A stretch of DNA of 64,000 nt from Candidatus Hydrogenedens sp. (GTDB lineage: Bacteria > Hydrogenedentota > Hydrogenedentia > Hydrogenedentales > JAEUWI01), in the NCBI GenBank assembly GCA_016125095.1, contig WGMK01000007.1, positions 265,605-329,604 of the forward strand, given 5' to 3'. The notes beneath the pieces were generated by a model that searched no databases, was not told the origin of the DNA, and worked only from the letters and a program-made list of their open reading frames with translations. Both the position numbers and the translations under genes were made by a program. This document shows, piece after piece, positions 1,204 to 40,282 of the stretch. Position 1 is the stretch's first letter. Each line of letters starts with the position of its first letter.

Positions 1204-2753
1204 GCGTCGTAGTCCTCTTTCGACAGCGCGGCCAAGACGGGCACACCGAGGCGGCGCTCGGCCTGGTCGGTCGTGTTCAGCGAGTCATCCAGATAATCGA
1301 GCAGGAACGCCAGCAGGAGCCCCGAGAAGAGGCCCACCAGAATCCCCAGCCCGATGTTGAGCAGCTTGTTCGGATACGACGGCTCGACCGGCCTGGTCGG
1401 CTGCTGCACGATGGACAGGTTCGAGATGTTCTCGGCATCGAGCGCGGCGTTGATCTTGCTGCGCTTCACGTTGCCGCGGTAGTCGCGGTATTCCGTGGCC
1501 GCCACATCGACATTGCGCTCGAGGCGGGACAACTCGGTTTCAAGGCCGGCAAGGCGATCCAGTTCCGACTGCGCCTCTTCCAGCGTGTTGCCGAGCGAAT
1601 CGAAGGCGGCTTGCTTGGCCATATACTGCGCGCGCTCTTCGGCCACCGCGACCGAAAGGTCCTGGAACTTGGTATCGATGGCGCTCACCACCTCGGTGCG
1701 GGATTTCTCTTCGGCGTCGATGGTGGCGTTCGTGCGCGCGATTTGATCGCGCAGCATCTGCAGCGGACGGTGCGTGTCGGGATAGAGGGCCGCCATTTCG
1801 GCCTCCTGAATCTCGAGTTCAGCCACGACCTGCTTGAGGTTGTCGCGCACAGGATTCACGTTCATCGTCCGGATTTCCGTGTTGTGGCGTTCGCTAGTCT
1901 TCGCGAGCGCTTCTTCCAGCGAGGCCAGGCGCGCCTTAGAACCATCGCGCTCCGCCTTCACATTGCGCGAGTCCATGATCACCGAATTGATGCGCTCGAG
2001 CAGCGCATCCTTCTGGCTCTGCAGGTGAACAATCTTGTTCTCGACGCGGAATTGGTCCAGCTCGGCTTCGGCCGCGGCGAGCGCGGATGCCAATTCGTCG
2101 GCGCGCTGCTCGAAGAATTCCGGCCCCGCGAGCGAGGCATGGACATCGATGTGCTCAGCGAGATAAAGCTGCATCAGCTGGGTGAGCGTCTGCTGCGCGA
2201 GTTCCGCGCCGTAGGCGTCGTACTTCACGGTGAGGATGCTGGTGTTCCGCTCGACCTCGACGTCGAGGTTGTCCATCGCCATGACGATGGCCTCTTCCTG
2301 CGGCTCCAGCTTGGTCTTGAGATCCAGCGCGTAAAGCACGCCGTTTACTGCGCCACGCACGCCTTTGCGTACTTGCCGCACGATGCCCTTGATGCCGCCC
2401 GCCGCGGCGGTGTCGGCCGCCGGCATGAGCGCACTCTCGCCATGTTCCGCCAGCAGCTTTTCAAAGAGGCTGCGGTTCTTGAGAATGGCCACCTCGGACC
2501 GCACTTCAGCCTCGCGGTTGGTCAGCATGGCGGTGGTCGGACCGGAAATGGTGGGATCCACGCCCAGGCTCTCGCGGCCGAGGCGGACAAATACCTGTGC
2601 CTCGGAAGTGTAGAGCTCGGGTACGAGATAGGTGTACGCCGTTACGCCCGCCAGCACCAGCAGCGTCACCAGCAGGATTTTCCCCTTGTGGCGGAAAACC
2701 ACGTAGAGGATGTCACGCATCGAGAAGTCGAAAAGTTTAGGTGCGTTCGCCAT
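1194..2753 (-). CDS. Polysaccharide chain-length determinant protein (Wzz/Wzc/GumC family, no kinase domain)
   Basis: 519 aa with an N-terminal TM (ILLVTLLVLAGVTAYTYLV), a long coiled-coil periplasmic region and a C-terminal TM (LLNIGLGILVGLFSGLLLAFLL). This is the typical PCP-2a/GumC architecture. There is no Walker-A tyrosine-kinase domain. Confidence 0.75.
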   Translation of the reverse strand: MANAPKLFDFSMRDILYVVFRHKGKILLVTLLVLAGVTAYTYLVPELYTSEAQVFVRLGRESLGVDPTISGPTTAMLTNREAEVRSEVAILKNRSLFEKLLAEHGESALMPAADTAAAGGIKGIVRQVRKGVRGAVNGVLYALDLKTKLEPQEEAIVMAMDNLDVEVERNTSILTVKYDAYGAELAQQTLTQLMQLYLAEHIDVHASLAGPEFFEQRADELASALAAAEAELDQFRVENKIVHLQSQKDALLERINSVIMDSRNVKAERDGSKARLASLEEALAKTSERHNTEIRTMNVNPVRDNLKQVVAELEIQEAEMAALYPDTHRPLQMLRDQIARTNATIDAEEKSRTEVVSAIDTKFQDLSVAVAEERAQYMAKQAAFDSLGNTLEEAQSELDRLAGLETELSRLERNVDVAATEYRDYRGNVKRSKINAALDAENISNLSIVQQPTRPVEPSYPNKLLNIGLGILVGLFSGLLLAFLLDYLDDSLNTTDQAERRLGVPVLAALSKEDYDACT

Positions 2754-2776
2754 GGTTATGCTCTCGCTTTCTCGCG

Positions 2777-3544
2777 CTACTGCAGCAGATTCGGCAGGTT
2801 GATGTTGTAGCTACGCGTATTCACATCCTGGCCGCCGACCTGCCGGCTCCAGACATAGGTCGGCTGGAAGTTCCGCGGAATGATGTTGTTCACGTACTGG
2901 TCGACAAACTGATTGACCTTGTCGATAGCCGTCCGCGGCACATACACGACGTCGTAAGGCTGCAGCAGCACCACGTCGCTCTCGGAATTCTTCAGCGCGT
3001 CGGTGAGGTCGTAGGTGCGGGCATACTGCTTGCCGTCCTGCGAGCGCACCAGCAACACCTGATTCAACTTGGCCGTGTTCTTGTTGTACCCGCCCGCCAT
3101 CATGATGGCCTCGAGCAGGGTCAGGCGGCCCACAATGGGCAGCATCTGCGGGGCATTCACTTCGCCCGCCACAAACACGCGCTGGCTGCCGAGGCCTTCC
3201 ACGACCACCGTGATATCGGGATCGCGGATTTTGTCGGCGTAGGCCACCAGCAGATCCTCGCGAAGCTGCTCCGGCGTCTTGCCGGCGGCATCGACTTCCC
3301 CGACCATCGCCAGCGCAATCTTCCCGTCAGGGCGGATCGTCTGGGCGATGTTCAGGTCTTTCCAATAAGTGTAAAGAATCTGCAACTCATCGCCGGGCTG
3401 CAGAAGGAGAGGCTGCTCTTTCGCCTCGGGGAAATTGGGGCTGGTTTCCGGAGAATAGGTCTGGCAACCCGGCAGCAATAGCGCAAAAAGCGCTACGGCG
3501 GACAGGCATGCCCCCAACCGGATGAGGGAATGGTACCTGCTCAT
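2777..3544 (-). CDS. Polysaccharide export outer-membrane lipoprotein (Wza/Poly_export + SLBB-like)
   Basis: 255 aa with signal peptide and lipobox LLLPGC. Poly_export-like motifs (PGDELQI, KIALAMVGEV, VFVAGEVNAP, LTLLEAIMMAGG) are present. It sits between the wzc-like and GT genes. Confidence 0.8.
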   Translation of the reverse strand: MSRYHSLIRLGACLSAVALFALLLPGCQTYSPETSPNFPEAKEQPLLLQPGDELQILYTYWKDLNIAQTIRPDGKIALAMVGEVDAAGKTPEQLREDLLVAYADKIRDPDITVVVEGLGSQRVFVAGEVNAPQMLPIVGRLTLLEAIMMAGGYNKNTAKLNQVLLVRSQDGKQYARTYDLTDALKNSESDVVLLQPYDVVYVPRTAIDKVNQFVDQYVNNIIPRNFQPTYVWSRQVGGQDVNTRSYNINLPNLLQ

Positions 3545-3718
3545 GAACGTCGTTCTCCTTCCGGAATCATGGGGAACCGCACCCCGATGATCGCATTACG
3601 CTCGTCCCCGTCCCATCCACTCCGCGCGGAGGAACGGCAAGACCTTGCACCGCGTGGGGTTGTACATTCCCCTTGTCACTACAAATTTACCAGACTTTGC
3701 GTCAGTTTGTAAAGTAAT

Positions 3719-4957
3719 TCACAATCCAGCCCGCTGAATTGCGGGCTCAGTAGCGCTAATATTACGCTTTAAAATGCGAAAATAAAACTTTTCCAGAAGA
3801 TCAATAAGATGCTCCCAAGCAAGGACCTCTTCCGCCACCTGGCGGGCACGCTTTCCAATAGCGGCGGCTTCTTGCGGATTCCGTAGCAGCGAAACTACCG
3901 CTTCGGCCATGGCACCCGCCTCGGGCGCCGTGAGCACGCCGGCCTGATGTTCTTCGAACAGCCGTTTCACTTCGCCGACCGGATTGGATACGGTGGGACG
4001 CCCGACGCAGCAGTAGTCGCCCACCTTATTGGGCCACCGCCCGCGGTTGCTCACCTTGTCGGCGTAGGGCATGAGAAAGACATCTGCTGCCGGCAGGTAT
4101 TTTCGGAGGTCGGCGTAGGGTACCGGCCCGATCGGCATGAGCGATGTGGGGGGCACCCCGTCGGGAACGAGCCCGCGGAGGTCCTTCTTTCCCGGGCCCA
4201 CCAGCAGGAACACCGCCTCGGGAAATGCGTGCAGCACCCCGGCGAAGGCCTCTACGGCCAGTGGCAGATCGATGAGAACGTCGAGTCCGGAGAAGCAGAC
4301 AACCGGTACATCGGCCGGGATATCCAGCAATCGCCGGCTCTCCTCGCGGCTCAGGACCGGATCGAAGGCGCGCAGGTTGGCGCCGCCGGGAATCTGTACA
4401 CAGCGCTCCCGGGGTACGCCGAGATCCACGGCGCGTTCGATAAGGGCGTCACTGATAGCAGTGAGTCCATCCAGCTGATTCCGGTAGTGCTCCTCGAACC
4501 ACGTCTCAACGCCCGAGAAAAGTGCCTTGTACCAACCCGGCCGCCGTTCATCGATCAGCCCGCCGCGTCCCCACCAGTCAATCCAGTCGCTGACAATCGG
4601 AATATTGCGCGCGCGGCCATAGGCCAAAGCCGGCCAGATAACCGCAAGCCGTGTATCCAGGCAATGGATAATGTCGTACGGCTTATTCTCGGAGAACAGA
4701 AAGCGCTTCCGCTTCGAGGCGCAGTAGGGATCCCAGCCCTGCCGTAGCGCACCTACGAGCATATCCGGATTCTCAATAATCCGGAAGCCATCCACCTGCT
4801 CGACGTGTGTTCTCCAGCGTTCCGTGTCCGCGTGGCACATGACGTCCACCTCGTGCCCGCGCGCCGCCAGTTCCCGGGCCCACGGATACGCCCGAAAGTT
4901 TATTTTGAAGCGGCGGTGATTGCTGATCAGCAGGATTTTCAAGGGCAGCTGCGGCAA
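3719..4957 (-). CDS. Glycosyltransferase family 4-like
   Basis: 412 aa GT-B fold with a GT4-like C-terminal domain (VGPGKKDL...FLMPYADKVSNRGRWPNKVGDY, E-x7-E-like region). It is adjacent to the export genes. Confidence 0.7.
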   Translation of the reverse strand: MPQLPLKILLISNHRRFKINFRAYPWARELAARGHEVDVMCHADTERWRTHVEQVDGFRIIENPDMLVGALRQGWDPYCASKRKRFLFSENKPYDIIHCLDTRLAVIWPALAYGRARNIPIVSDWIDWWGRGGLIDERRPGWYKALFSGVETWFEEHYRNQLDGLTAISDALIERAVDLGVPRERCVQIPGGANLRAFDPVLSREESRRLLDIPADVPVVCFSGLDVLIDLPLAVEAFAGVLHAFPEAVFLLVGPGKKDLRGLVPDGVPPTSLMPIGPVPYADLRKYLPAADVFLMPYADKVSNRGRWPNKVGDYCCVGRPTVSNPVGEVKRLFEEHQAGVLTAPEAGAMAEAVVSLLRNPQEAAAIGKRARQVAEEVLAWEHLIDLLEKFYFRILKRNISATEPAIQRAGL

Positions 4958-5232
4958 GTTTTCTACTCCATATTCTCCTAGAGAATTTTAGAGCGCACCT
5001 CCCGCGAAAGCAATGACAGCCGCGCCGCAGGATCTTCGTCAGTCTGACGAAAACGCTTTGGCGGTTTTGACAGTGAGCTGACTATTCCGCATCCCCTCAA
5101 CGTGACAGCAAGTCCCTTAAAGCATTACAAATCAGCAACTTAGCGCACACTCGAATTGTTGGCATGGCGGCTGCAAAGGGGTTGACGTCTCGAATGTCAC
5201 GAATTCAGAATGAGTATGCGGGAGGTTGAACC

Positions 5233-7659
5233 ATGAAAAATCTTGTTTTTTGTCTTGCCTTGATGGCCCTGACCAGCGCTTTTCCTGTTTCTGCGCTGAC
5301 CATCCAAACGAACAGCGCGTCCATTAAACAGTCCCCCAGCCACGGACACCTGGCCTGGAACGGCGAAATCGGCCAGTACATCTATGTACCGGCCGCAGGC
5401 CAGTACCGGATGACGGTGCGCGCTGCGGGCATGCTCGCGGGCGGCGTCGGACCGGACATGGCGTTCCGCGTGAATCAGGTGAGCCGCTTCACCGTACAGG
5501 TCAACCACACCGATTTCCGCTACTACAGCTACGATGTCGCACTCGAAGCGGGCGCGCATGAAATTGGCGTTGCGTTCACCAACGACGCCTACATCAACGG
5601 TGAAGACCGCAACTTGCTGCTCGACACCATTTCGGTATCGCCGATTAGCGGCGGCGGCGAGCCCTCGCTGAGCACCGAGCAGGCGTGGATCGATGGCGCC
5701 CAGGTGCGCGACGCCGCGGTGCTGTCCAAGACGAACGCCCTTATCGAGCAGAACCGCAAGGCCCCGATGCAGGTGCTGGTGGTGGACGAGGCGGGCAACG
5801 CCGTGAGCGGCGCGCAGGTGGAAGTCACCCAGGACGCCAGCGAGTTCCTGTTCGGCGCGAACTTGCACGGCTTCAACCAATACACCGGTTCGCAGAACAC
5901 CACGTACAAGCAGAAGTTCAGCGAACTCTTTAATTACGCGACGGTGCCCTTCTACTGGTCAATGATCGAGCCGGTGCAGGGCCAGCCGAACTACGCGCTA
6001 CTGGACGCGATGGTGGCTTGGGCGAAGTCGAACAACATCGACCTCAAGGGCCACGCGGTGCTGTACGGCGACACGGGCATGGTGCCCGCGTGGGCCGGCA
6101 CGCCGAGCGAATCGACGCAGCTGGCGCGCATCAATGAAGTGTTCAGCCGCTTCGGCGGCAGCATCAACAAATGGGACCTCGTGAACGAGCCGGTCAGCGC
6201 GCTGGGCTCGATGGTCTTCGCGCCGGCCTACCACTACGCCAAGTCCCTCCAGCCGAACAGCAACCTGCTGGTGAATGAATACGGCCAGTTCTACAGCGGT
6301 TTCGACGTGTTCTTCGCGAACGCCTACCAGACCCTGCGCGAGACGATGGAGCAGCAACTCGCCGCCGGTACCCCGATTGACACGGTGGGTATCCAGGCGC
6401 ATGCGCCGGTCGATACGGCTTGGCCGCTGGAGACCATCTGGAACCACCTCGACCTGTACGCTGCGCTCGGCACCGACATCCACATCACCGAGTTCATGCC
6501 CTGCTCGAACGGCGCTCCGGTGCTGGGAACGCCCTACCGCGGCACCTGGACGGAGGCCACGCAGGCCCAGTTCGCCGAAGACTTCTACCGCGTCTGCTTC
6601 GCCCATGAAGACGTGAAGGCCATCAGCTGGTGGGACTTCGCCGACACGGGCGCCTGGCTCTCGGGCGGCGGCATGCTGCGCAGCAACTTCACAACGAAGC
6701 CGGTCTATGACCGCCTGAAGAACCTGGTGAAGAACGAATGGCGCACCAATGCGGCGGGCGCGAGCGACGCGCAGGGCCGCTACCTCGTGAACGCCTTCCA
6801 CGGCGCCTACACGGTAAGCGTGACGCGCGATGGCCAGACCTACACGCAGCACCTGACGGTCAGCAAGGACGGCGACAACGTCGCGGTGGTGACGCTCCCC
6901 GGCGGTTCGACGCCAACCCCGGACACGACGGCCCCGGTGATTAGCCTCAATGGTGCTGCGAGCGTGACGATTAACCAGGGCACGAGCTACAGCGACGCGG
7001 GCGCGACGGCGACCGACAACATCGACGGCAACCTGACGGCGCAGATCTCGGTGAGCGGAACCGTGAACATGAGTGTCGCGGGTACCTATACCCTGACCTA
7101 TCGCGTGAGCGATGCCGCTGGCAACGCGGCCACCCCGGTGACCCGCACCGTGACGGTGAAGGCCGTGGACACGGTAAAGCCGGTTATCACCCTGACGGGC
7201 TCCGCGAACATGAGTGTTAACCAGGGCGGCAGCTTCAATGACCCCGGCGCAACGGCGACCGACAACGTCGATGGCAACCTGACCAGCCAGATCACGGTGA
7301 GCGGTTCGGTGAACACGGGCGTGGCCGGTACGTACACGCTGACTTACCGCGTGAGCGATGCCGCCGGCAATGCCGCCACCCCGGTGACGCGCACCGTAAC
7401 CGTGCTCGCGGGCGACACCGTGAAGCCGGTCATCACGCTCAAGGGCTCCTCGACGGTGAGCGTCCGGTGGCGCCGCAGCTTCAGCGACCCCGGCGCGACG
7501 GCGACCGACAACGTGGACGGCAATCTGACCAGCAAGATTCAGGTCTCCGGCAACGTGAACACGAGCTGGCCGGGCACCTACTACCTCTACTACAACGTGT
7601 CGGACGCGGCTGGCAATGCGGCAACGCAGGTTGTCCGCACGGTCAAGGTCACCTGGTAA
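5233..7659 (+). CDS. Secreted GH10-like glycoside hydrolase with N-terminal beta-sandwich module and 3 C-terminal Ig-like (DUF5011-type) repeats
   Basis: RBS gggagg 7 nt upstream and a signal peptide MKNLVFCLALMALTSAFPVSA. GH10 (clan GH-A) catalytic signatures are present: WDLVNEP (acid/base) and ITEFMP (nucleophile). Three tandem ~82-aa repeats carry ATDN[IV]DGNLT and VSDAAGNAATPVTRTV motifs. Confidence 0.7.
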   Translation: MKNLVFCLALMALTSAFPVSALTIQTNSASIKQSPSHGHLAWNGEIGQYIYVPAAGQYRMTVRAAGMLAGGVGPDMAFRVNQVSRFTVQVNHTDFRYYSYDVALEAGAHEIGVAFTNDAYINGEDRNLLLDTISVSPISGGGEPSLSTEQAWIDGAQVRDAAVLSKTNALIEQNRKAPMQVLVVDEAGNAVSGAQVEVTQDASEFLFGANLHGFNQYTGSQNTTYKQKFSELFNYATVPFYWSMIEPVQGQPNYALLDAMVAWAKSNNIDLKGHAVLYGDTGMVPAWAGTPSESTQLARINEVFSRFGGSINKWDLVNEPVSALGSMVFAPAYHYAKSLQPNSNLLVNEYGQFYSGFDVFFANAYQTLRETMEQQLAAGTPIDTVGIQAHAPVDTAWPLETIWNHLDLYAALGTDIHITEFMPCSNGAPVLGTPYRGTWTEATQAQFAEDFYRVCFAHEDVKAISWWDFADTGAWLSGGGMLRSNFTTKPVYDRLKNLVKNEWRTNAAGASDAQGRYLVNAFHGAYTVSVTRDGQTYTQHLTVSKDGDNVAVVTLPGGSTPTPDTTAPVISLNGAASVTINQGTSYSDAGATATDNIDGNLTAQISVSGTVNMSVAGTYTLTYRVSDAAGNAATPVTRTVTVKAVDTVKPVITLTGSANMSVNQGGSFNDPGATATDNVDGNLTSQITVSGSVNTGVAGTYTLTYRVSDAAGNAATPVTRTVTVLAGDTVKPVITLKGSSTVSVRWRRSFSDPGATATDNVDGNLTSKIQVSGNVNTSWPGTYYLYYNVSDAAGNAATQVVRTVKVTW
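6922..7659 (+). repeat. 3 tandem 246-bp coding repeats (Ig-like DUF5011-type domains); units 2 and 3 nearly identical at DNA level
   Basis: Repeat units start at about 6922, 7168 and 7414. Conserved DNA blocks (gcgacggcgaccgacaac, ccggtgac(c/g)cgcaccgt) recur with a 246-bp period. Confidence 0.8.
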
Positions 7660-7693
7660 ACGCCTCATCACGCCTCTAGGCGTACTCACTCAA

Positions 7694-7740
7694 AAGGCGG
7701 CGGACCTACCCCTTCGGTCCGCCGCCTGAGTTTTTTTTTC
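7694..7740 (+). terminator. Rho-independent terminator after GH10-like gene
   Basis: GC-rich stem ggcggcggacc / ggtccgccgcc with loop tacccctt, followed by T9 (7731-7739). Confidence 0.8.
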
Positions 7741-7822
7741 GGCGTGAAAAGCATTCCAAACTGGAATGTGTTACACTTTTTGTTAGTCATCAATGGCTGC
7801 ACACTGGGGGAAACGCGCTGGA

Positions 7823-10800
7823 ATGCGCTGCTGGATTCCCATAGTTTTAGGCATCATTCTGGTTCCTGCCGCCTGGGCCGGTCCGCTGGACGGCCTGACC
7901 CTGCAGGCGGAGCTTCCGGCTGTTCAAACCAATCAGGCGACCGACCTTTCGATAGAACCGGAGGGCGGTCTCGACCCGGGCTGGACCTATGCCTGGACGT
8001 CATCCAGCGGAGCGCTAGCGGCGGACGAATCCGAAGCTACCTTCACCGCGTCGTCCCTGAGTGGATACGTCCTCATCGAGGTCGAAGTATTTGACGGTGC
8101 GAACAGCCTCGGCATTCTAAGAACGCCCCTGCTGATTTATACCCAACTGGCCATCATCAAGGCCGACGACTACGTGAGCTACAACGGCAGCGTGCCTGCG
8201 GCCTGGCAGGCCTATTTCGACGTGATGAACCGCGAGTACCGGCTCAAGCATACCGTCGGCGTGATCACGGAGTGCCTGAACAACTACACCTTCGAGACCG
8301 GCACCAATTTCACCGACGGCATGCAGGCGCTGCACGTCTCGGGGCTGGGAGAAATCTGGCACCACGGGCTTGACCACTCTGGTACCATCGACGAGGCCAA
8401 GGGGGCCGAATTGAGCTTGGCCGCGCTACCATCGCCAGTCTGGAAGGCATCGACCATCACGGAATTCTTCGGACAGCCTTACGCCTTCCAGAAGGCGCAT
8501 CTCGAGAACGGCTTGACGCTGTCGCGCGATGTGCTCGGGTTTCCGATGGTGACCTTCGGCGCGCCTTTCGGCATGAGCGACAGCACGACGATTACCGTCG
8601 TTGATGAATCCGCCGATATCGCCAATTGGTACGACGGGCTCTCGGGCACGGCCAAACGACTGTTGCCTGTAGACGGCGTGCTGGTAGAAAACCCTACGGG
8701 GTATCCGCTGCTCGAGCAGTTCAACGCGATCTATGATCCGGAACAGCCGCTGATCATCATGCAGGTGCATCCCGGTTACGAAGAGCCGGCAGGCGTGTTT
8801 CCCTTTAGCACGCGCCTCCCGGCGTGGCGTACGATGCTCGACACCGTCTTGTCGAATCAGACGGTGTTCCTGACGGCAGCCGAATACGACGCGCTGTTCG
8901 ACCAGGGGGCTTTCCCGCTGTATCCCGGTCGAGATACGGACACCGATGGCATCGAGGACTGGAACGAGGGCAACGGCGACACCGACGGCGACGGCATGCC
9001 GGATTTTCTGGACTTCGACAGCGGTGGAGCCGGACCTCGCATTCAACAGTTGGGTGTCGAGCTCGTGGCTGCGGGGCAGTATGAAATCACCTTCGAACTC
9101 GCGGACGCCGATACGGTGCATGACATCGTGGTCGAGCTGGATCAGGGCGGCGGAGCCGGGTTCGAGGCGCTGATTGAAATTAGCGGCGACCTCACGGGCC
9201 TGACCAGCGGCAATGGCTACACGATTGACTGGGACACTGCGACCGAGTTGCCGGGGGTAGAGCTTGATTACACGTCGATTCGACTGACGCCAGTTGTTTC
9301 GGTACCCGCCAGCCCCGACCGCGTACCCAGCGATGAGGCCACGTTCACGCAAGGATGCACGGACTGTGTCAGCGGCGACACAATACCCTCGTTCCAGGTC
9401 CGCCTCTCCCCCTATGAGTTGGGAACCTATGAAGTAACCAACGGCGAATTCGCCGACGTCCTGAACTATGCGCACGGCGAGGGGTACCTCACGAACCCCA
9501 GCGGTGCGGCTTATGCCGGCGGCGATGTGTACTTTGCCGGACAGAGGCTCTATGCCCTTTCCGCAAGCGGTGCGCAAATCGCATTCAGCGCAGGGATATT
9601 CAGTCCCAAGACCCGCGATACCCTGCCCATGGACGGCCATCCGGTAACTCAGGTGACCTGGTATGGGGCGGCGGCCTATTGCAATTGGTTGAGCGAACAG
9701 GCGGGACTCGAGTCCAACTACGACCCCGACGATCTCTGGCGGGCGGCTTACCCGCCCGCGAATGGATTTCGTCTGCCTAGCGAAGCGGAGTGGGAGCACG
9801 CCGCCGGATGGGTGGACGTCGATGGCGCCTTCGGCTTTCCAACCAGCACCGACACGCTGTCGACCCAGCAGGCGAACTACAGTTCGTCCAATCCGCTGAG
9901 CCTGACCAACGCGCCCTTCACCACGCCGGGCGGTTACTACGACGGTAACAATGGCACGACCGACAGCCCGAGTCCCTTAGGTGCTTACGACATGGCAGGC
10001 AACGCGGCCGAATGGTGCGCCGACCGATACGACGCGTACTTCGAATATTCCGCGACCGATCCGATAGGTTCCTACACAGGACCGCGCCGCGTGGTGCGCG
10101 GCGGTGCCTGGGCCGACACCGATGCTGCATGCGAAACGACCGCGCGCGAGTCGGCGCTGGGCAGCACGGCCAGCAATCGTATCGGCTTCCGTATCGCCCG
10201 CTCTGTACGGAACGGAGACCGGACGACATCAGGAATATCGATCGACAACGTCCCGCCGCAGGTAACCGCCATGGCGCTGGAATCGCCGGTCAGCGAGAGC
10301 GACCTTACGATGCGCTTCACCGTGACGTTTTCCGAGCCGGTGGAAGGGCTCGTGCTGGGCGACTTTGACCTCACCGCCAACGGAATCGTGGTCATTCCTC
10401 CGGCCCTCACGTCGTTGGAGGGAAGCGGCGACGCCTATGTACTTGAAGCCACCACGGGGACCATGCAGGGCTCAATCGACCTCGAACTGATTCCCTCTGC
10501 CGCGGCGACCGATGAGGGGCTCAATCCGATCGACGCCTACACAGAAACAGCGATAGCGACGCTGAATACGCTGGCTCCCGCAGTGACTTCGCTCGAACTG
10601 GTCGGAAGTCCGCCCGACAACGCGGACACCCTGGTCTTTAGTGTCATGTTCAGCGGGCTGGTGGTAGCGGTCGTGCCCGACGACTTCACGCTGCAACTCG
10701 ATGGCGAATCGGGACCCGTGGGACCGGCCATAACCGATGTCAGCGGGGCAGGCCCCGTCTGGCTGGTCACCGTGGCAGTCAATGAGTTCGACGGGCAATT

Positions 10801-12628
10801 GGGCCTGGCGCTGACCGATGCGGACAACAGTATTCAGGACATTTTGAACCAACCTTTGCGCAACCGGGACGAAACTGGCCTGGTACACACTGCAGCAACC
10901 CGGCCGCCGCGCATTGTGTCGCTCTCCGTGCTGGGCAATCCCGCACCGAACGCCCAGTCGGTATCCTTTGGAATCGAGCTGAGTGAACCGGTAACGGGAC
11001 TCACGCAATCGGATGTGACGCTCTTGTTCGATGGTTCGACGATCTTTTCGCCGGAGATTTCCGGCTTCGGCGGTAGTGGCAGCATGTATTGCGTCGCGGT
11101 CGACACGGGCATTGCGGACGGCATGCTGGGGCTCGCCGTAGATGGTGCTTCGCCCGCCATCGACAGCAGCGGGCTAGGGCTGCTGGCGGGGGCTTCAGAC
11201 GCCTCCCTGTTCGCGGTCGACACCATTGCGCCCGAGCCGCTCGAGGTCGCCTTGGTCGGCACCCCGCCTGCCAACGCGCAGACCGTCGATTTTCTGGTCA
11301 CGTATACGGAGCCGGTTATCGGGGTCGACACCGGCCAGTTCGAGGTGTATTTGGGGGGAACTACAGACGAGGCACCGAGTGTAGCCGCCGTGAATGGCAG
11401 CGGATCGGTCTGGACCGTGACCGTGGACCTGGGCGTCAGCGAAGGCGTGATTGATCTGTTGCTGGTCTCCGATGATTCGGTGACCGATTTGGCGGGCAAC
11501 ACACTGGCCTCGTTGACAAGCTCCGGCGAGGTTCATGCTGCCGACACCCGGCCACCGAGGCTGATTGCTGCAGAGGCCTTGGGAGACTCGCCGACGGCCG
11601 CGAGCACGGTGAAGTTTACCCTCGCGTTCAGCGAACCGGTGGGCCCGCTCGAGGGCACGCAGGACGAGCAGCTGCTCATCACGTCTCCCGGACTCACCTT
11701 GGGGGCGGTACAGACGCGCGCGGTGGGAGACTTGGCCCACTACGAGATCACCATCAGCGGTATTGAAGGGGCGGGGACGATTTCCTTAACCGCCCGCGAA
11801 ACCGGAACGGAAGGCGGGGGAACGCTGCTCGATACCAACGGCAACGGTTTGCCGGAGCCGGAGATTCCGCCTGCGAGCATTGTGGTGGATCGGCTGTCTC
11901 CGACGCCGGTATGCAGCGGCGCGACGGTCGCGCTGGATGAGAACGGCATGGCGACCTTGCTGCCGGAAGCAATCGACGCGGGCAGCAGCGATACCCTCAG
12001 CGCGGTCACGCTGGTATCGGTCGTGCCGGATTCGTTCAGCTGCGAGGATATCGGTATCCGGCCGGTGGTGTTGAACATCGCGGATGCGCTCGGCAACGCC
12101 GCGCACTGCACGGGATTCGTGCGCATCGCCGATCCGCTGGGTGCCTGCGTGGTAATTGTGGAAGGCGAAGGGGAAGGCGGGGGAGAAGGACGCCCGGAAG
12201 GAGAGGGCGACGGGAGCGTCGACGGCGAGGGTGGTGGTGAAGGGCTCCCCGGCGGAGAAGGAGAAGGAATACTTGACGGTGAAGGCGGCGGCGAGGGAGA
12301 CCCGTCGCTAGCCATTCACTCCGCCGACTGGAATGGCATTCCGGATCACCGTATCGACATCGTCGAACTCCTGCGGGTCATTCAGCTCTACAATGCGGGC
12401 GAGGCCGGGTTCTGCTGCGGCGAAGGCGAGACCGAAGACGGCTTTACCCTGGGTCCGTGCGAAAACTTCAGCTGCAGCGCCCACGCGGCAGACTACGAAG
12501 AGCCGTTTTGGGAAATCACCCTGACTGAGTTGCTTCGCGTGGTGCAGTTCTTCAATCTGGGGGGCTATTACCGCTGCCCGGAAGCCACGGAAGCCGACGG
12601 GTTCTGCGCGGGGCCGGCCGCCCCCTGA
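7823..12628 (+). CDS. Giant secreted multidomain protein: FGE-sulfatase-like domain, TSP3-type Ca-binding motif, >=5 tandem ~100-aa beta-sandwich repeats, Ig-like domain, EG-rich linker, dockerin-like C-terminal repeats
   Basis: The ORF runs 7793-12628. The likely start is M at 7823, followed by signal peptide MRCWIPIVLGIILVPAAWAGP. The FGE/SUMF1-like domain (about 9400-10205) has the motifs HPVTQVTWYGAAAYCNWL, GFRLPSEAEWEHAAGW, YDMAGNAAEWCADRY, RVVRGGAW and RIGFRIARS. A DTDTDGIEDWNEGNGDTDGDGMPDFLDFD Ca-binding stretch lies at about 8931-9020. Repeats of the form [VI]xSLxLxGxPPxNAxTVxFxVxFSEPVxG lie at about 10240-11720. The EGEGEGGGEG linker is at 12163-12300. The C-terminal repeats DWNGIPDHRIDIVELLRVIQLYN and TLTELLRVVQFFN are dockerin/EF-hand-like. 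Confidence 0.7.
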   Translation: MRCWIPIVLGIILVPAAWAGPLDGLTLQAELPAVQTNQATDLSIEPEGGLDPGWTYAWTSSSGALAADESEATFTASSLSGYVLIEVEVFDGANSLGILRTPLLIYTQLAIIKADDYVSYNGSVPAAWQAYFDVMNREYRLKHTVGVITECLNNYTFETGTNFTDGMQALHVSGLGEIWHHGLDHSGTIDEAKGAELSLAALPSPVWKASTITEFFGQPYAFQKAHLENGLTLSRDVLGFPMVTFGAPFGMSDSTTITVVDESADIANWYDGLSGTAKRLLPVDGVLVENPTGYPLLEQFNAIYDPEQPLIIMQVHPGYEEPAGVFPFSTRLPAWRTMLDTVLSNQTVFLTAAEYDALFDQGAFPLYPGRDTDTDGIEDWNEGNGDTDGDGMPDFLDFDSGGAGPRIQQLGVELVAAGQYEITFELADADTVHDIVVELDQGGGAGFEALIEISGDLTGLTSGNGYTIDWDTATELPGVELDYTSIRLTPVVSVPASPDRVPSDEATFTQGCTDCVSGDTIPSFQVRLSPYELGTYEVTNGEFADVLNYAHGEGYLTNPSGAAYAGGDVYFAGQRLYALSASGAQIAFSAGIFSPKTRDTLPMDGHPVTQVTWYGAAAYCNWLSEQAGLESNYDPDDLWRAAYPPANGFRLPSEAEWEHAAGWVDVDGAFGFPTSTDTLSTQQANYSSSNPLSLTNAPFTTPGGYYDGNNGTTDSPSPLGAYDMAGNAAEWCADRYDAYFEYSATDPIGSYTGPRRVVRGGAWADTDAACETTARESALGSTASNRIGFRIARSVRNGDRTTSGISIDNVPPQVTAMALESPVSESDLTMRFTVTFSEPVEGLVLGDFDLTANGIVVIPPALTSLEGSGDAYVLEATTGTMQGSIDLELIPSAAATDEGLNPIDAYTETAIATLNTLAPAVTSLELVGSPPDNADTLVFSVMFSGLVVAVVPDDFTLQLDGESGPVGPAITDVSGAGPVWLVTVAVNEFDGQLGLALTDADNSIQDILNQPLRNRDETGLVHTAATRPPRIVSLSVLGNPAPNAQSVSFGIELSEPVTGLTQSDVTLLFDGSTIFSPEISGFGGSGSMYCVAVDTGIADGMLGLAVDGASPAIDSSGLGLLAGASDASLFAVDTIAPEPLEVALVGTPPANAQTVDFLVTYTEPVIGVDTGQFEVYLGGTTDEAPSVAAVNGSGSVWTVTVDLGVSEGVIDLLLVSDDSVTDLAGNTLASLTSSGEVHAADTRPPRLIAAEALGDSPTAASTVKFTLAFSEPVGPLEGTQDEQLLITSPGLTLGAVQTRAVGDLAHYEITISGIEGAGTISLTARETGTEGGGTLLDTNGNGLPEPEIPPASIVVDRLSPTPVCSGATVALDENGMATLLPEAIDAGSSDTLSAVTLVSVVPDSFSCEDIGIRPVVLNIADALGNAAHCTGFVRIADPLGACVVIVEGEGEGGGEGRPEGEGDGSVDGEGGGEGLPGGEGEGILDGEGGGEGDPSLAIHSADWNGIPDHRIDIVELLRVIQLYNAGEAGFCCGEGETEDGFTLGPCENFSCSAHAADYEEPFWEITLTELLRVVQFFNLGGYYRCPEATEADGFCAGPAAP

Positions 12629-12716
12629 AACGCCGGGACGCCGCGGCGGTAGAACTAAAGGTAACTGGGGACCGTTGCGGCCCCACTACCCCCACGAATG
12701 AACAGGAGGTTTACTT

Positions 12717-13826
12717 ATGACTGTTCGCGTGACGCTCTTGCTCCCGCTCGCGTGTTTTGTGCTGCTGCAAAGCGGCTGCCTGTTTCAGGATGCCGACGGC
12801 GACGGCCTGCCGGACCTGCAAGAAACCTGCGTGGACCTGGATGGCGACAACGTGCCGAACTGCCAGGACTTGGACTCGGACAGCGACGGGGTGCCGGATG
12901 CTGTGGAGGGTGATGGCGATGTGGACGGAGATGGCCTCCCGGATTTCCTGGATGTCGACGATTCGCAGCCTCTGCAGCTGAATCTCGCTTGGGACGGGCG
13001 CTCGCGATATTACGAGCTGTACCTGCCCCCCGGCGTAGAGAAGGGCACCTCGGTACCGCTCCTGCTGGGCCTGCACGGCACCGGCCAGACATCGGAGCAA
13101 TTCCGGCATCAGGCGCGCATCAAGGTGTTCGCGGAAAGCACCGGTTTTATCGCGGCGTATCCCGAGGGGGTGGAACTGAACTGGAACGACGGGCGCGCCG
13201 TCAGTGGAATCACGGCCTACGATCAGAACGTCGACGACGTTGGCTTTCTGGCGGCGTTGATTGACGCGATAGCCCTGGATTTCCCGGTCGACACCTCGCG
13301 CGTCTACATCGCGGGCTTCTCCAACGGCAGCGTGATGGCGCAGCGGTTCGCCCTGGAGCGCCCGGAGAAAATCGCCGCCATCGCCTGTGTCGCTGGGCAA
13401 CTTGCCGAAAATCTGTTGGAATTGCCCGCGCCTGAAATGCCCACGCCGATTCTGATGGTGAACAGCCGCGACGACCGGGTGGTTCCCTTTGCGGGCGGCG
13501 AGGCCAGCCTGCTTGGCATGTCGCTCGGCAGATTCGCCTCAGTGCCCGAGAGTGTGGCGTATTGGGTGGGTGTGAACGGCGCGGCGGAAACGCCCGCGTC
13601 CATCGCCATCGACACGGCCGACTACGACAATTGCAGCGTGGTCCGGAAAATCTACGCGCCGGGTGCGAGTGGTGCAGGGGTCGTGCTGTATGAAATTACC
13701 GGCGCGGGGCACGCCTGGGCGGGCGGACTGCAACAGGTCGGCGCGCTCAGCACCCCGGTCTGCTACGACATCGACGCCACCGCCGCCGCCGTCCAGTTCT
13801 TCGGGCAATACCAGCGGGTGCAATAA
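12717..13826 (+). CDS. Secreted lipoprotein esterase, PHB-depolymerase/feruloyl-esterase family (alpha/beta hydrolase) with N-terminal TSP3-like Ca-binding repeats
   Basis: RBS aggagg upstream. Lipobox [15 protein letters not shown] / DSDSDGVPD / DGDGLPDF repeats. GLHGTGQT oxyanion region and nucleophile elbow GFSNGS, typical of the esterase/PHB depolymerase family. Confidence 0.7.
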
Positions 13827-13893
13827 TTTGTACGATGAATGAGGTATCATGGGAACAAGATGTGATACTGCATTCTGAATCGAGGGTGCTGAC

Positions 13894-14067
13894 GTGAGAA
13901 ATGAGTTCACCGCCATCTTTGAAGAATCCGATGGGGAGTTTGTCGGGTATTGCCTCGAAGTCCCCGGAGCCAACGGACAGGGACGAACGAAAGAAGAGTG
14001 TCGTCAGAATCTTTCGGAGGCTATTGCATTGCTCTTGGAGATGACGCAGCCAACCGCCGCCCAATAG
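13894..14067 (+). CDS. HicB-like (UPF0150) antitoxin-family small protein, orphan (no hicA seen)
   Basis: 57-aa GTG-start ORF below the ORF-track size cutoff: VRNEFTAIFEESDGEFVGYCLEVPGANGQGRTKEECRQNLSEAIALLLEMTQPTAAQ. It matches the HicB N-domain pattern (V.Y.PE.PG..GQG.T.EEA..N..EAI.L.LE). Local GC is lower than its surroundings. Confidence 0.4.
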   Translation: MRNEFTAIFEESDGEFVGYCLEVPGANGQGRTKEECRQNLSEAIALLLEMTQPTAAQ

Positions 14068-14101
14068 AACCCTCTCCGGCTGCGCAGGTACAATCGGCGG
14101 C

Positions 14102-16069
14102 ATGTGCGGTATCTGCGGCAAAGTCCTTCATGCACCCGGCGCGCGGGTTTCCGAGCGCTCGGTTCAGGACATGGCGACGCTTATCGCGCATCGCGGACCG
14201 GACGACGAGGGTTTCCACTTCGATGGCGAGGCCGGGCTGGGCTTCCGGCGGCTGAGCATTATCGACGTTGCAGGCGGCCATCAGCCCATGTGCAACGAAG
14301 ACGGCCGCGTCTGGATTGTCTTCAACGGCGAGATTTACAACCACCGCGAACTCCGCGCTGAACTCATTGCCAAAGGGCACGAGTTCAAGACCCACTCGGA
14401 TACCGAGACCATTCTCCATCTGTACGAAGAAGCGGGGGAGGCCTGTCCGGAGCGGCTGCGCGGCATGTTCGCGTTTGCCATCTGGGACGCGCGGGATCGC
14501 AGTCTGTTCGTGGCGCGCGACCGCTTCGGCATCAAGCCCTTGTATTACCGGGCGACCGCGGAGACCTTCGCCTTCTGCTCCGAGCTGAAGCCGCTGCTCT
14601 ACGATGCCGAGACGACGCCAGACCTCGATCCCGTCGCGATTTCCGACTACTTCTCGTCCTACGTGTTCGGCGAGCGCACCATGTTCCAATCTATCCGCCG
14701 CCTGCTGCCGGCCCATTGGATGCGGGTACGCGGCGGCGAGGTGACCACCCGCCGGTATTGGCAGCCGGAGCTGGACGCCGAGGTAACGGGGCGGAGCGCC
14801 GGAGAGAACCTGGAGGCCCTGCGCGCACTGCTGCAGGAAGCGATGCGCGAGCACATGATGAGCGAGGTGCCACAGGGCGCGTACCTGAGCGGGGGCGTGG
14901 ATTCCAGCCTCATCACCATCCTGATGAACGAAGCCGGTGCGCACCCGGTCAAGACCTTTTGCAGTACCTTTCCGGGGGGCGGCGCATTCGACGAGAGCGG
15001 CTACGCGGCGAAAGTCGCGCGCGCGTTCAACACGGAGCACCACGAAATCCCCTGCCAGCCGGAACACATCGGGCTCCTGCCCAAAGTGCTGTGGCACCTG
15101 GAAGAACCCCTGGCCGACGCCCCGACCATCGCCCTGTATCAGCTTTGCCAGGAGGCCGCGAAGCAGGTGACCGTGGTGCATTGCGGCGATGGCGGCGACG
15201 AGGCCTTCGCAGGGTATACGCGCTACTACTGGGACCGCTTCGCCGGTGCCTACAACCGCGTGCCCGGCGCCATCCGGCACGGCATGCTGCCGCCGGTATG
15301 GCGCGCGCTGCAGGCCATGCCGGGTCCGCTGCGCAATCTCGGCCGCCGTGCGGAGAAGTTCAGCCGCTATTCCGATTTACCCGAGGCCGAGCGCTACATG
15401 AGCTGGTTCTGCGTGAATCCCGATAGCGCGAAGGCCGCCATGCTGACGCCCGAGTTCCAGGCGCTCTCCGGCGCGCACCGGTCGGCGGGCTTCTTCGAGA
15501 GGCTCTTCGCGGACGCCCGGGCCTGCGGCACCGACAACTTGGGTACCCTGCAATACTGCGACCTGCACAACTTCGTGCCGTACAGCCTCATGCTCAAGGG
15601 CGACAAGCTGACCATGGCCGCGAGCATCGAGGGGCGCTTTCTCTGGCTGGACCACCGGCTGGTAAATTTCGGCCTGAGCCTGCCGCCAGACCAGAAGATG
15701 CAGGGCCGCCACACCAAGGTGCCGCCGCGGAAGGTTTTCCAGTCCTACTGGAACGACCCCGATGTCTGGCGGCCCAAGCAGGGGTTCGGCGTGCCCATCG
15801 AGGACTGGTTCAAGGGTTCGCTCCGCGAGGAAATGGAAACGACCATCGAAGCCGCCCAGCGCGACGTCATGCAGGTCGTCCGGCCCGAGGCCATCCGCAC
15901 CATGGCGGACCAATTGATGGCCGGCGACCCGCACGTGTGGCCGCACCTGTGGAGCGTCTACGTCTTCTACACCTGGCGGAGGGTCTTCGAACATATCCGG
16001 CAGGACTGCGCCGAAATCATCCGCACCACCACCGATCCCTTCGCCCGGGCACGCGCGGAGGAGGGGTGA
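14102..16069 (+). CDS. asnB: Asparagine synthase (glutamine-hydrolysing) family amidotransferase; eps-locus AsnB paralog-like
   Basis: N-terminal nucleophile MCGICG. Class-II glutamine amidotransferase domain plus Asn_synthase domain (SGGVDSS PP-loop). 655 aa. Confidence 0.85.
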   Translation: MCGICGKVLHAPGARVSERSVQDMATLIAHRGPDDEGFHFDGEAGLGFRRLSIIDVAGGHQPMCNEDGRVWIVFNGEIYNHRELRAELIAKGHEFKTHSDTETILHLYEEAGEACPERLRGMFAFAIWDARDRSLFVARDRFGIKPLYYRATAETFAFCSELKPLLYDAETTPDLDPVAISDYFSSYVFGERTMFQSIRRLLPAHWMRVRGGEVTTRRYWQPELDAEVTGRSAGENLEALRALLQEAMREHMMSEVPQGAYLSGGVDSSLITILMNEAGAHPVKTFCSTFPGGGAFDESGYAAKVARAFNTEHHEIPCQPEHIGLLPKVLWHLEEPLADAPTIALYQLCQEAAKQVTVVHCGDGGDEAFAGYTRYYWDRFAGAYNRVPGAIRHGMLPPVWRALQAMPGPLRNLGRRAEKFSRYSDLPEAERYMSWFCVNPDSAKAAMLTPEFQALSGAHRSAGFFERLFADARACGTDNLGTLQYCDLHNFVPYSLMLKGDKLTMAASIEGRFLWLDHRLVNFGLSLPPDQKMQGRHTKVPPRKVFQSYWNDPDVWRPKQGFGVPIEDWFKGSLREEMETTIEAAQRDVMQVVRPEAIRTMADQLMAGDPHVWPHLWSVYVFYTWRRVFEHIRQDCAEIIRTTTDPFARARAEEG

Positions 16070-16595: not shown

Positions 16596-17558
16596 TCAGT
16601 CGATGACGTCGGGATTGCGGACTTCATTGTAGAAATCGACGAAGCTGCGGGATTCCTTGCCGGCCATGCGGTTGTCCATGAACTCCAGGCCGGTGCGCGG
16701 ATGCTGGTTGAGAATGCCATTGACCATGTAAGGCATCTGGTAGCCCCACTGCAGGTCGGCGTGCAGCTGGAGGAAATACTTCTCGATCAGGCCGAGCACG
16801 GGGGAAAGCTGGTACTTGGGGTTCTTCAAGAATCCCAGCAGCAGCTCGGTGGTGCAATTGCCGGCGGCGCGGCCCATGCCGAAGATGCTGCCGTCCACGT
16901 AGTTGATGCCCTTGATGATGCCCTCGATGGTATTGGCGAAGGCGAGCTGCTGGTTGTTGTGGCAGTGGATGCCCACCTGCTTGCCCTTGAGCAGCGTCGT
17001 GTACTTCTCGGCGAGGTATTGAATCTGCTCCGAGTAGAAATAGCCGAAGGAATCGACCAGGTACACCACTTCGAAATCGGTATCGGCCAGTTGCACCAGC
17101 GCCTCTTCCAGCTCCGGCTCGAGCACCGTCGAGGCGGCCATGATGTTCACAGAAATCTCGTAGCCGAGCGCCTTGATATGGTTGCCCAGGTGAATCGCTT
17201 TGTCCACGTCCTTGGCATAGGTTGCCACGCGGAACATGGAAATGATGGACTCCTCCGCCGGAAGGAAGTTGTCGTAGTCCGTGCGGCCCACATCCACCAT
17301 CACCGATATCTTGGTGTTGTCGTCCTTGAAGGCCACTTCGCGCAGGTCGGCTTCGTCGCAGAAGCGCCACGGGCCGTGCTTTTTCGTATCGAACTGCGCC
17401 TTGTCCGCGCGGTAGCCCAGCTCCACGTAGTCCACGCCCGCGGCCACCAGCCCGGCATACACGTCCTTCACCATCGCCTTGTCGAATTCCCAATTGTTCA
17501 TCAGGCCGCCGTCGCGGATGGTGCAGTCCAGAATCTTGATTTCAGGCCGGTACATGGT
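16596..17558 (-). CDS. HMGL-like / DRE-TIM metallolyase family aldolase (pyruvate carboxyltransferase domain)
   Basis: The likely start is M at 17558 (MYRPEIKILDCTIRDGGLMNN, the DRE-TIM N-terminal motif). HxH metal site GIHCHNNQQLAFANT. The ORF-track upstream extension to 17741 is probably non-coding. Confidence 0.6.
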   Translation of the reverse strand, partial: TMYRPEIKILDCTIRDGGLMNNWEFDKAMVKDVYAGLVAAGVDYVELGYRADKAQFDTKKHGPWRFCDEADLREVAFKDDNTKISVMVDVGRTDYDNFLPAEESIISMFRVATYAKDVDKAIHLGNHIKALGYEISVNIMAASTVLEPELEEALVQLADTDFEVVYLVDSFGYFYSEQIQYLAEKYTTLLKGKQVGIHCHNNQQLAFANTIEGIIKGINYVDGSIFGMGRAAGNCTTELLLGFLKNPKYQLSPVLGLIEKYFLQLHADLQWGYQMPYMVNGILNQHPRTGLEFMDNRMAGKESRSFVDFYNEVRNPDVID

Positions 17559-17730
17559 GCGGGTCTCCCTGCGGAAAATGGCAACAAAAGACGACGCGCC
17601 CGCCCAAGGCGCGCGGAAAGTGGGGGAGTATACCCGATGGACAGGCGCCGAGAAAAGCAGACCGCGAATACTGCCAAGGCCGCAGCAACCGATACCGGCA
17701 ATCGGAAAAATCCTGCTACACTCCCGCGCC

Positions 17731-21288: not shown

Positions 21289-21379
21289 GAATCATCTCCC
21301 TCCCGAATTGGGAACCGTACCGGGAATCAAGATAGCAGTGGACATCGCAACACTCAAACCGATACAAGGGGGAAAGGGC

Positions 21380-28036: not shown

Positions 28037-28049
28037 GGCGACCGCCAGA

Positions 28050-40275: not shown

Positions 40276-40282
40276 TTCAGCC

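Follow-up and report, generated by a model that had tools for sequence, protein, structure and literature searches.

A putative secreted carbohydrate esterase with CE4-like and FGE-like domains and a lineage-wide C-terminal module in Hydrogenedentota

Aerobic formylglycine-generating enzymes (FGEs) require both of their catalytic cysteines as Cu(I) ligands and act on unfolded sulfatases before or during export. CtCE4, a CE4 acetylxylan esterase module of C. thermocellum, reportedly belongs to a dockerin-bearing cellulosomal xylanase, and dockerins are about 70 amino acids (aa) long. Here we analyzed a gene whose product can be compared to each of these systems. The gene is located at positions 7823 to 12628 (forward strand) of a 64,000-nt stretch of DNA from Candidatus Hydrogenedens sp. 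(phylum Hydrogenedentota; assembly GCA_016125095.1, contig WGMK01000007.1, positions 265,605 to 329,604), hereafter called the window. We lean toward the view that this gene encodes a secreted, surface-displayed, multimodular carbohydrate esterase/deacetylase. What is new here is an unannotated CE4-like domain and an undescribed phylum-wide EF-hand-like module, the FGE angle of this protein being ordinary.

According to the reading that we favor, the CE4-like domain would strip acetyl groups from a polysaccharide, our guess for the substrate being acetylated xylan or hemicellulose. The partners of the enzyme would be a conserved downstream esterase and, in the genome of the window, an upstream GH10/CBM60 xylanase. 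The domain with the FGE fold would have no catalytic role and would instead serve in binding or as a scaffold, in the manner of PorK/GldK and further Cys-less proteins with the C-type-lectin-like fold, and five Ig-like repeats followed by a Glu/Gly-rich (EG-rich) linker would form a spacer stalk. Finally, the C-terminal module, composed of two EF-hand-like units braced by disulfides, would dock the protein in a Ca-dependent manner to a partner at the cell surface or on a scaffold. Three parts of this scheme are inferred: the substrate, a binding role for the FGE-like domain and docking that depends on Ca.

A CE4-like domain as the likely catalytic core

An open reading frame (ORF) of 1611 codons is open at 7793-12628 (+). 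Its probable start is Met11 (position 7823), which yields a protein of 1601 aa, and the database copy of this protein (P0001) is also 1601 aa long and begins at Met11, in agreement with this start. All residue numbers given below are counted from 7793 (i.e., on the 1611-aa version). Full-length orthologs were found in other metagenomes with 62% (P0002), 63% (P0003) and 41% identity (P0004), which indicates that the gene is real and does not represent a chance ORF. An earlier first-pass annotation of this DNA had described a large secreted multidomain protein starting at 7823; the ORF, the start and the full-length orthologs all agree with this description, and every peptide block quoted in that annotation was found in the translation. 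The gene and the domain that most likely defines its function are as follows:

7823..12628, + strand: gene for the 1601-aa protein (ORF and orthologs P0002-P0004)
8129..8926, + strand: predicted CE4-like, DUF2334-related NodB-fold deacetylase or acetyl-esterase domain, aa 113-378 (homologs, model and motifs)

The CE4-like domain contains the motifs IIKADD (D125, D126), WHHGLDH (H191, H195), FGAPFG and QVHPG (H326), and this region (aa ~113-378) is the best-conserved portion of the protein across orthologs. An exhaustive phmmer search with this domain identified 373 related representative clusters. Stand-alone relatives are recognized by the DUF2334 model (E as low as 1e-12) and by Polysacc_deac_1, and the 28 larger relatives present DUF2334 in 20 cases and Polysacc_deac_1 in 14 cases. 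Several of these larger relatives are fused to other modules: GH10 (two), a SASA acetylesterase domain (two), CBM4_9 (two) and CBM3 (one). These fusions to GH10, SASA and carbohydrate-binding modules (CBMs) suggest a role of the family in plant-polysaccharide deacetylation. In an alignment of 60 sequences, ten residues were invariant: D125, D126, E187, H191, H195, E224, Q233, D263, E299 and H326.

Structural comparisons point in the same direction. The AlphaFold (AF2) model of the domain has a pLDDT of 85.7, and its top Foldseek matches in the PDB are the CE4 acetylxylan esterases 7ax7, 2c71 and 7fbw (E 8e-9 to 9e-8), with a TM-score of 0.72-0.74 when normalised to the target and a total of 71 PDB matches at E<=1e-3. 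The next matches are peptidoglycan/polysaccharide deacetylases and ArnD. In profile alignments, the family sequence 'ElwnHGydH' pairs with CE4 motif 2 ('ELASHSYTH/EIGLHSYSH') and 'iHP' pairs with the 'LH' of CE4 motif 5 (7ax7). For motif 3, the family sequence 'tFgAPgn' (FGAPF in the window) pairs with 'FFRPPY/LFRPPFG', and a Gly occupies the Arg position of RxPY. CE4 motif 1 ('DD') was assigned based on its position and invariance, with no printed alignment. Alignments and model together indicate that the domain adopts a NodB fold with a complete metal triad (D126-H191-H195), a predicted catalytic base (D125) and a predicted catalytic acid (H326). The CE4-like domain is likely the catalytic core of the protein, and it most likely defines an enzymatic function that the first-pass annotation had overlooked.

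Alternatively, the protein could be mainly a structural surface protein or adhesin, in which the CE4-like and FGE-like domains would both be inactive binding modules. The ~550 aa of Ig-like repeats and the loss of the catalytic residues of the FGE-like domain (see below) are in line with this idea, as are the missing motif-3 Arg and the existence of CE4 pseudoenzymes, with BA3943 among the structural matches. However, 60 diverse members of the family all retain the complete Asp-His-His triad together with the predicted catalytic Asp and His, a degree of conservation that one would not expect in a pseudoenzyme. We consider this alternative distinctly unlikely.

The other parts of the protein are organized around the putative carbohydrate esterase domain as follows (all on the + strand):

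7823..7879, +: signal-peptide-like N-terminus, aa 11-29, MRCWIPIVLGIILVPAAWA (judged by eye from the translation)
7880..8128, +: N-terminal domain of ~80 aa, aa 30-112 (consensus of family alignments; no Pfam match)
8927..9022, +: Asp-rich stretch, aa 379-410 (by eye; kept in orthologs)
9023..9334, +: ~100-aa domain without family match, aa 411-514 (ortholog conservation)
9368..10201, +: FGE-sulfatase-fold domain, aa 526-803 (Pfam PF03781, E 2.3e-36)
10235..11881, +: five tandem Ig-like repeats of ~108 aa, aa 815-1363 (self-alignment and Big_12)
11888..12148, +: ~87-aa domain with conserved cysteines, aa 1366-1452 (ortholog alignment)
12155..12304, +: Glu/Gly-rich low-complexity linker, aa 1455-1504 (translation)
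12305..12625, +: C-terminal double-repeat module, aa 1505-1611 (profile family and AF2 model)

The domain at aa 30-112 carries a W.Y.W.A..G motif that is common to other members of the family and probably forms a beta-sandwich. Calcium-binding motifs had been proposed earlier: by eye, the Asp-rich motifs at aa 381-409 (DTDTDGIEDWNEGNGDTDGDGMPDFLDFD) resemble thrombospondin type 3 calcium-binding repeats, but Pfam TSP_3 yielded no match to the stretch at aa 379-410. A Pfam scan of the isolated segment at aa 411-514 returned no match. The tandem repeats noted in the first-pass annotation are five in number; they share 19-33% pairwise identity in a self-alignment and the motif DT.PP...F.V.FSEPV.G., and they present a weak match to Pfam Big_12 (E 8e-7). 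The domain at aa 1366-1452 has no Pfam match and contains four cysteines that are kept in the orthologs (Cys1374, Cys1417, Cys1439 and Cys1452). When the N-terminal, middle, Cys-rich and C-terminal segments were scanned in isolation against Pfam and NCBIfam at permissive E-values, no usable match was obtained.

The FGE-like domain and the neighboring sulfatase

The FGE-like domain was aligned with HMMER to the FGE of S. coelicolor (2q17/6muj), whose Cu(I)-binding Cys pair sits in LCHDSYC. In this alignment, the window segment reads RGGAWADTDAACE---TTAR (in its longer form, RVVRGGAWADTDAACE---TTARES): the first catalytic Cys is replaced by Asp775, the second is retained as Cys780 and the 'RYR' segment is deleted. 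The alignment to the FGE of T. curvata (5nxl/6s07) agrees on all three points (Asp775/Cys780, RYR deleted). The Cys pair is not present in the window domain, as had been proposed earlier together with the observation of a single Cys in the catalytic-loop region, which the alignment also recovers. The position of the first Cys is occupied by D, S or A in all eight representatives that share the architecture of the window protein; the second position is a Cys in six of them and V or L in the other two, which lack both cysteines. Among solved structures, PorK (E 1.4e-14) and T. denticola variable protein 1 (E 3e-12) are the closest in sequence, ahead of true FGEs, and the NCBIfam equivalog models GldK, EgtB, SenA and PvdO gave only partial matches, far below their cut-offs.

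Judging from these alignments, the FGE-like domain would not be a formylglycine-generating enzyme and would be unable to mature sulfatases, because the two-cysteine Cu(I) site is absent. Like PorK, it presents an FGE fold devoid of catalytic function, a situation that is common in the superfamily. Its presence inside a large protein had been contrasted with stand-alone canonical FGEs of ~300 aa. For PF03781, however, an FGE-like domain inside a large protein is nothing unusual: other matches include proteins of 1359-1733 aa and kinases, and Cys-less PF03781 domains are common in large proteins. A Cys-less FGE-like domain (Pfam E 4e-45) was also observed in a 516-aa protein encoded two genes downstream of the P0003 ortholog (L001:15909-17459). 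This protein presents, in order, a signal peptide, a double ELLRxIQFYN module, an EG-rich linker and the FGE-like domain; the C-terminal module of the window protein and the FGE-like domain therefore co-occur in a second architecture.

The first-pass annotation had further suggested a functional link between this domain and a CxPxR sulfatase encoded 9 kb downstream. The sulfatase itself is well supported and its motif, AVCMPSRAM (CMPSR), indicates a genuine Cys-type enzyme:

21257-22783: sulfatase ORF, Met42 = nt 21380 (PF00884, E 3e-50)

Such a link would imply that the window protein is an extracellular non-canonical FGE, which matures the neighboring Cys-type sulfatase via a single-Cys or altered site. 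The PF03781 domain is strong, the CMPSR sulfatase is located 9 kb downstream, a sulfatase is also found within ~5 kb of the ortholog in both close orthologous loci (L001 and L002), and the equivalent of the second catalytic Cys is kept in 6/8 representatives. We nonetheless regard this explanation as highly improbable. An Asp, Ser or Ala stands in for the first Cu-ligand Cys in 8/8 representatives, the second is lost in 2/8 and RYR is deleted; the closest solved relatives are non-enzymes; and the 1601-aa protein is secreted, stalked and surface-located, unlike the working place of an FGE. Moreover, the distant orthologous locus, on a contig of 10.8 kb, shows an esterase and no sulfatase, and the sulfatase lies near the gene only for the 62-63% orthologs. 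The neighborhood shared by these two loci also includes unrelated Band_7 genes, so that the association with the sulfatase looks like residual synteny. We conclude that the 1601-aa protein is very probably not the maturase of the CMPSR sulfatase. Neither an anaerobic sulfatase-maturing enzyme nor a second FGE-like gene was found among the large window ORFs that were scanned with Pfam.

A C-terminal double-repeat module in Hydrogenedentota

The C-terminal module (aa 1505-1611) follows the EG-rich linker, which had been noted earlier and is indeed present ahead of the repeats. Its two repeats are loop-helix units (HSAD...ELLRVIQLYN and HAADY...ELLRVVQFFN), and behind each of them come a hairpin with a Cys and an EDGF motif. 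The two ELLRV(I/V)Q(L/F)(Y/F)N repeats are the sole motifs of this kind in the six frames of the window. The module matched no Pfam family at E<=10, Dockerin_1 included, and no NCBIfam family at E<=1. An initial search with the module returned nine short relatives, and the profile built from these sequences retrieved at least 607 proteins, among which the organism-named carriers are Hydrogenedentes/Hydrogenedentota. Many contigs with the module (L013, L019, L020, L026, L027 and others) come from metagenome-assembled genomes (MAGs) of binchicken assemblies titled 'uncultured Nitrospirales bacterium'. This title is probably a placeholder or a mislabel, every other named carrier being Hydrogenedentota.

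Scanning one genome per species yielded at least 562 confirmed copies of the module, with one MAG alone contributing at least 21 of the 80 best loci. Dozens of copies are found per MAG, on very diverse secreted proteins. A hidden Markov model (HMM) search over 805 kb of retrieved DNA identified 104 ORFs carrying the module, and ~96% of them have it at the extreme C-terminus. Only 4 of the ~104 copies are N-terminal or internal: one directly follows the signal peptide in the 516-aa L001 protein, one is located ahead of the Ig domains and the membrane anchor in a cohesin-Ig protein (L018), and two further non-terminal sites were found elsewhere. The carriers include TrAA12-like proteins/beta-propellers, InlB B-repeats, CHRD, PASTA, LRR, beta-helix, lactonase, papain proteases, BNR and GDSL lipases, and the consensus of 51 other carriers indicates that an EG-rich linker is generally present ahead of the module. 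Across the lineage, the module recurs as an appendage of many secreted proteins that are unrelated to one another. We also observed tandem genes with products ending in the module: three in a row at L024:4330-9871 and pairs in L083, L075, L076 and L082. Many copies are located at contig ends, which suggests that the DNA repeats formed by the module and the EG linker break assemblies. No description of the module was found in the searched literature, where the matches for dockerin or cohesin in Hydrogenedentes were generic surveys only.

The repeats had been described as dockerin-like in the first-pass annotation. The AlphaFold model of the module (pLDDT 90.3, pTM 0.83) presents two units, each with a loop, a helix of 12-13 residues and a beta-hairpin. 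In a PDB search with the module profile, for which 60 of the 119 matches at E<=10 were listed, almost all of the listed sequence matches were EF-hand proteins (hippocalcin, calmodulin, troponin C; E 8e-4 to 0.17), and no dockerin was found among these 60. The alignments to EF-hand proteins involve the first unit of the profile and cover the Ca-binding loop together with the beginning of the exiting helix. Foldseek returned two PDB matches for the model, both to dockerin chains of 5nrk, and these are non-significant (E 4.7 and 8.1; probability at most 0.10; TM-score of 0.38 by query length and 0.55 by target length). The family consensus, in which three positions were filled (G, G, K), scored 13 bits against Dockerin_1 (E 0.11), relative to a cut-off of 22.9. 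The EF-hand score of such a filled consensus constitutes a lead only, the unbiased profile search representing better evidence. What stands of the dockerin-like description is therefore a two-unit EF-hand-like module after a linker; membership in the dockerin family failed all sequence tests, including a direct check against Dockerin_1 (no match at E<=10). By every one of these tests the module is not a member of the dockerin family, but it may act as a docking or tethering appendage that is dockerin-like in its organization.

Given the dominance of C-terminal copies, the module could instead be a signal for secretion or sorting that a dedicated export system recognizes and cleaves off, as with the C-terminal domain of type IX secretion. 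As expected for such a signal, ~96% of the copies are at the extreme C-terminus and many unrelated secreted cargo proteins carry the module, with dozens per genome. However, one copy is N-terminal after a signal peptide (the 516-aa L001 protein), another is internal (L018) and two more sites are non-terminal; a strictly C-terminal sorting signal was set aside because these N-terminal and internal copies exist. In addition, the carriers have N-terminal signal peptides, the 1601-aa protein included, and the fold is made of paired EF-hand-like loop-helix units with no beta-sandwich. When the module was compared to PEP-CTERM, LPXTG and type IX C-terminal domains, signals that occur strictly at the C-terminus and, for the first two, include a hydrophobic helix and a basic tail, we found that the protein ends in ...CPEATEADGFCAGPAAP without a hydrophobic helix and that 4 of the ~104 copies are non-terminal. 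Taken together, a sorting signal appears unlikely.

The docking function that we favor for the module could extend beyond this protein. Tentatively, the module might represent the docking element of a Hydrogenedentota-wide, Ca-dependent surface-display or enzyme-assembly system, i.e., a dockerin analog from an independent sequence family. Cohesin-like proteins of the phylum could then act as the receptor for the dozens of hydrolases, proteases and binding proteins per cell, the 1601-aa protein among them. Proteins with a cohesin domain do occur in Hydrogenedentota, and a few of them carry the module themselves. A crude cohesin HMM built from four sequences detected none in the window, this HMM being too weak to prove absence. 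Several cohesin-like loci and proteins were observed: a protein with a signal peptide, a cohesin-like domain, an EG linker, the module, two Ig domains and a C-terminal membrane helix (L018:5386-6972), a row of three cohesin-like ORFs of which one terminates with the module (L079:5461-8096), and three proteins of ~255 aa that combine a cohesin domain and the module (P0194, P0224 and P0263).

Gene neighborhood and comparison with known systems

The window presents, in order, genes for Wzz, Poly_export and GT4 (-), the CBM60-GH10-Ig gene (+), the 1601-aa gene, an esterase (+), an asparagine synthase, an ORF without family, a weak GH5-like ORF, a GH141-like beta-helix (-), the sulfatase, chemotaxis/signaling genes and two Band_7 genes. 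The features surrounding the gene are:

1194-4957, -: Wzz, Poly_export/SLBB and GT4 glycosyltransferase (Pfam)
5233..7659, +: CBM60, GH10 xylanase and three 'Bacterial surface Ig-like' domains (Pfam)
12717..13826, +: esterase, alpha/beta hydrolase (Pfam Esterase_PHB)
14102-16069, +: asparagine synthase, AsnB (Pfam)
16701-18461, +: long ORF of 586 aa, no Pfam match
26669-28066, -: long ORF of 465 aa, no Pfam match
38857-40599, -: long ORF of 580 aa, no Pfam match

The esterase is found directly after the ortholog in all four loci and no other neighbor is kept in all four, which makes it a conserved partner of the gene and a probable functional partner. Its product shows a lipoprotein-like signal, a lipobox-like LLQSGC, a GFSNG serine motif and Asp-rich repeats that resemble thrombospondin type 3. 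Around the 62-63% orthologs (L001 and L002), the order is beta-helix, sulfatase, Band_7, Band_7, ortholog and esterase. The esterase alone remains adjacent in the locus of the 41% ortholog (L003), and the sulfatase is absent from this short contig (10.8 kb). The GH10 gene is not adjacent in the orthologous loci, so that the GH10/CBM60 gene is a possible partner in the window genome only. We also observed that the CBM60 (xylan-binding)/GH10 protein at 5233-7659 does not carry the C-terminal module, unlike its 1601-aa neighbor. The first-pass annotation had placed the gene within a block of glycan-active enzymes. The strong GH10 and CBM60 matches, the GH141-like beta-helix and the esterase bear this out, but the GH5 match is weak (E 1e-4) and below the Pfam cut-off. 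Either the ORF at 16701-18461 or the GH5-like ORF at 17479-19221 may be spurious, since the two overlap. A promoter/terminator scan of 4900-14200 found sites no more commonly than in shuffled sequence and was uninformative on operon structure. Further along the window, a DUF2961 protein (E 2e-66) is encoded at 48358-49701 (-), among genes of the helicase/DNA-repair type. Three other proteins of the window are identical to the NCBI entries MBI1318127, MBI1318139 and MBI1318156, which belong to a Candidatus Hydrogenedens sp. MAG.

The flanking genes also suggest another substrate. The CE4-like domain could de-N- or de-O-acetylate the cell's own exopolysaccharide (EPS), as do PgaB, IcaB, PelA and BpsB, and thereby serve the flanking EPS genes. 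Wzz, Poly_export/SLBB, GT4 and the asparagine synthase do flank the gene, a GT2 gene is located directly upstream of the distant (41%) ortholog, and IcaB, a PgaB-type protein and BpsB are among the significant structural matches (ranks 20, 27 and 35). However, the EPS genes lie on the other strand and the close orthologs in L001 and L002 do not have them as neighbors, and the top structural matches are acetylxylan esterases. In addition, the family is fused to GH10, CBM3, CBM4_9 and SASA, which are plant-polysaccharide modules, and the conserved partner of the gene is a secreted esterase and no synthase. These observations make a role in EPS modification somewhat unlikely.

Several points weigh against the carbohydrate esterase/deacetylase that we favor. 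The CE4-like domain of the window itself has no Pfam or NCBIfam match, so that its link to the known families is transitive and structural, and a single-sequence PDB search with the N-terminal domain returned only noise. Its chemistry may differ from that of classical CE4 enzymes because the motif-3 Arg is replaced. The xylan substrate is not established, GH10 being adjacent in the window genome only; genes for EPS export and biosynthesis (Wzz, Poly_export, GT4 and AsnB) also flank the gene; and the downstream esterase scores closest to polyhydroxyalkanoate (PHA) depolymerases, with 144 bits against the NCBIfam model of extracellular type 1 short-chain PHA depolymerase (cut-off 150). The suggested binding role of the FGE-like domain comes solely from the loss of its catalytic residues. 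As for docking, the first loop of the window copy is 14 residues long and its second loop is atypical; Ca binding by this copy is uncertain because the first loop of its ortholog group contains a 2-residue insertion relative to the EF-hand-like consensus. No binding partner of the module emerged, and the large window ORFs scanned with Pfam included no cohesin-like gene.

These results have implications for annotation. The FGE-type name that one ortholog bears in the database (one source) is wrong for its function, and the protein is better read as a modular carbohydrate esterase/deacetylase with a pseudo-FGE domain. Its catalytic domain would belong to a divergent DUF2334/CE4 branch of 373 representative clusters that is missed by current models and that presents xylanase and CBM fusions in other organisms. 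In Hydrogenedentota, an uncultured phylum, a large set of secreted proteins can be recognized by the module, which provides a simple sequence tag for listing the exoproteome of this group. If it is truly a docking module, it would define how polymer-degrading Hydrogenedentota organize their surface enzymes.

Among known systems, the CE4 acetylxylan esterase modules (CtCE4 of C. thermocellum, 2c71; Xyl-CE4 from termite gut, 7ax7) share the NodB fold with the window domain (Foldseek E ~1e-8), as well as the Asp-His-His triad and the catalytic Asp and His. They likewise belong to large modular secreted enzymes, and the window gene lies beside a GH10 gene and has relatives fused to GH10 and CBMs. 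The window domain differs from them by its length (~265 aa vs. ~200 aa), by scores below every Pfam threshold and by the absence of the motif-3 Arg. The FGE-like domain resembles PorK/GldK, which belong to the type IX secretion ring, and T. denticola variable protein 1 (2y3c), in which a 'GGSW.D' pattern also replaces the first catalytic Cys; 2y3c likewise retains a sole Cys aligned with Cys780 and lacks the RYR insertion. PorK, however, is a lipoprotein of a secretion machine, whereas the window domain is part of a modular, enzyme-like surface protein of 1,600 aa, and the window protein scores only 77.6 bits relative to the GldK cut-off of 350. With the aerobic Cu-dependent FGEs (SUMF1; 2q17/6muj; 6s07), it shares PF03781 and several conserved blocks; it differs by the missing Cys pair, the deleted RYR segment, its embedding in a large secreted protein and a sulfatase linkage that is not conserved beyond close relatives. 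Finally, the C-terminal module is similar to type I dockerins (PF00404) in several respects: both are small modules with two tandem loop-helix units after a flexible linker, mostly C-terminal and occasionally N-terminal or internal, and found on dozens of secreted enzymes per genome. In contrast to type I dockerins, the module matches canonical EF-hand loops ending in Glu, is ~105 aa long and presents a Cys-containing hairpin and an EDG(F/Y) motif after each unit.

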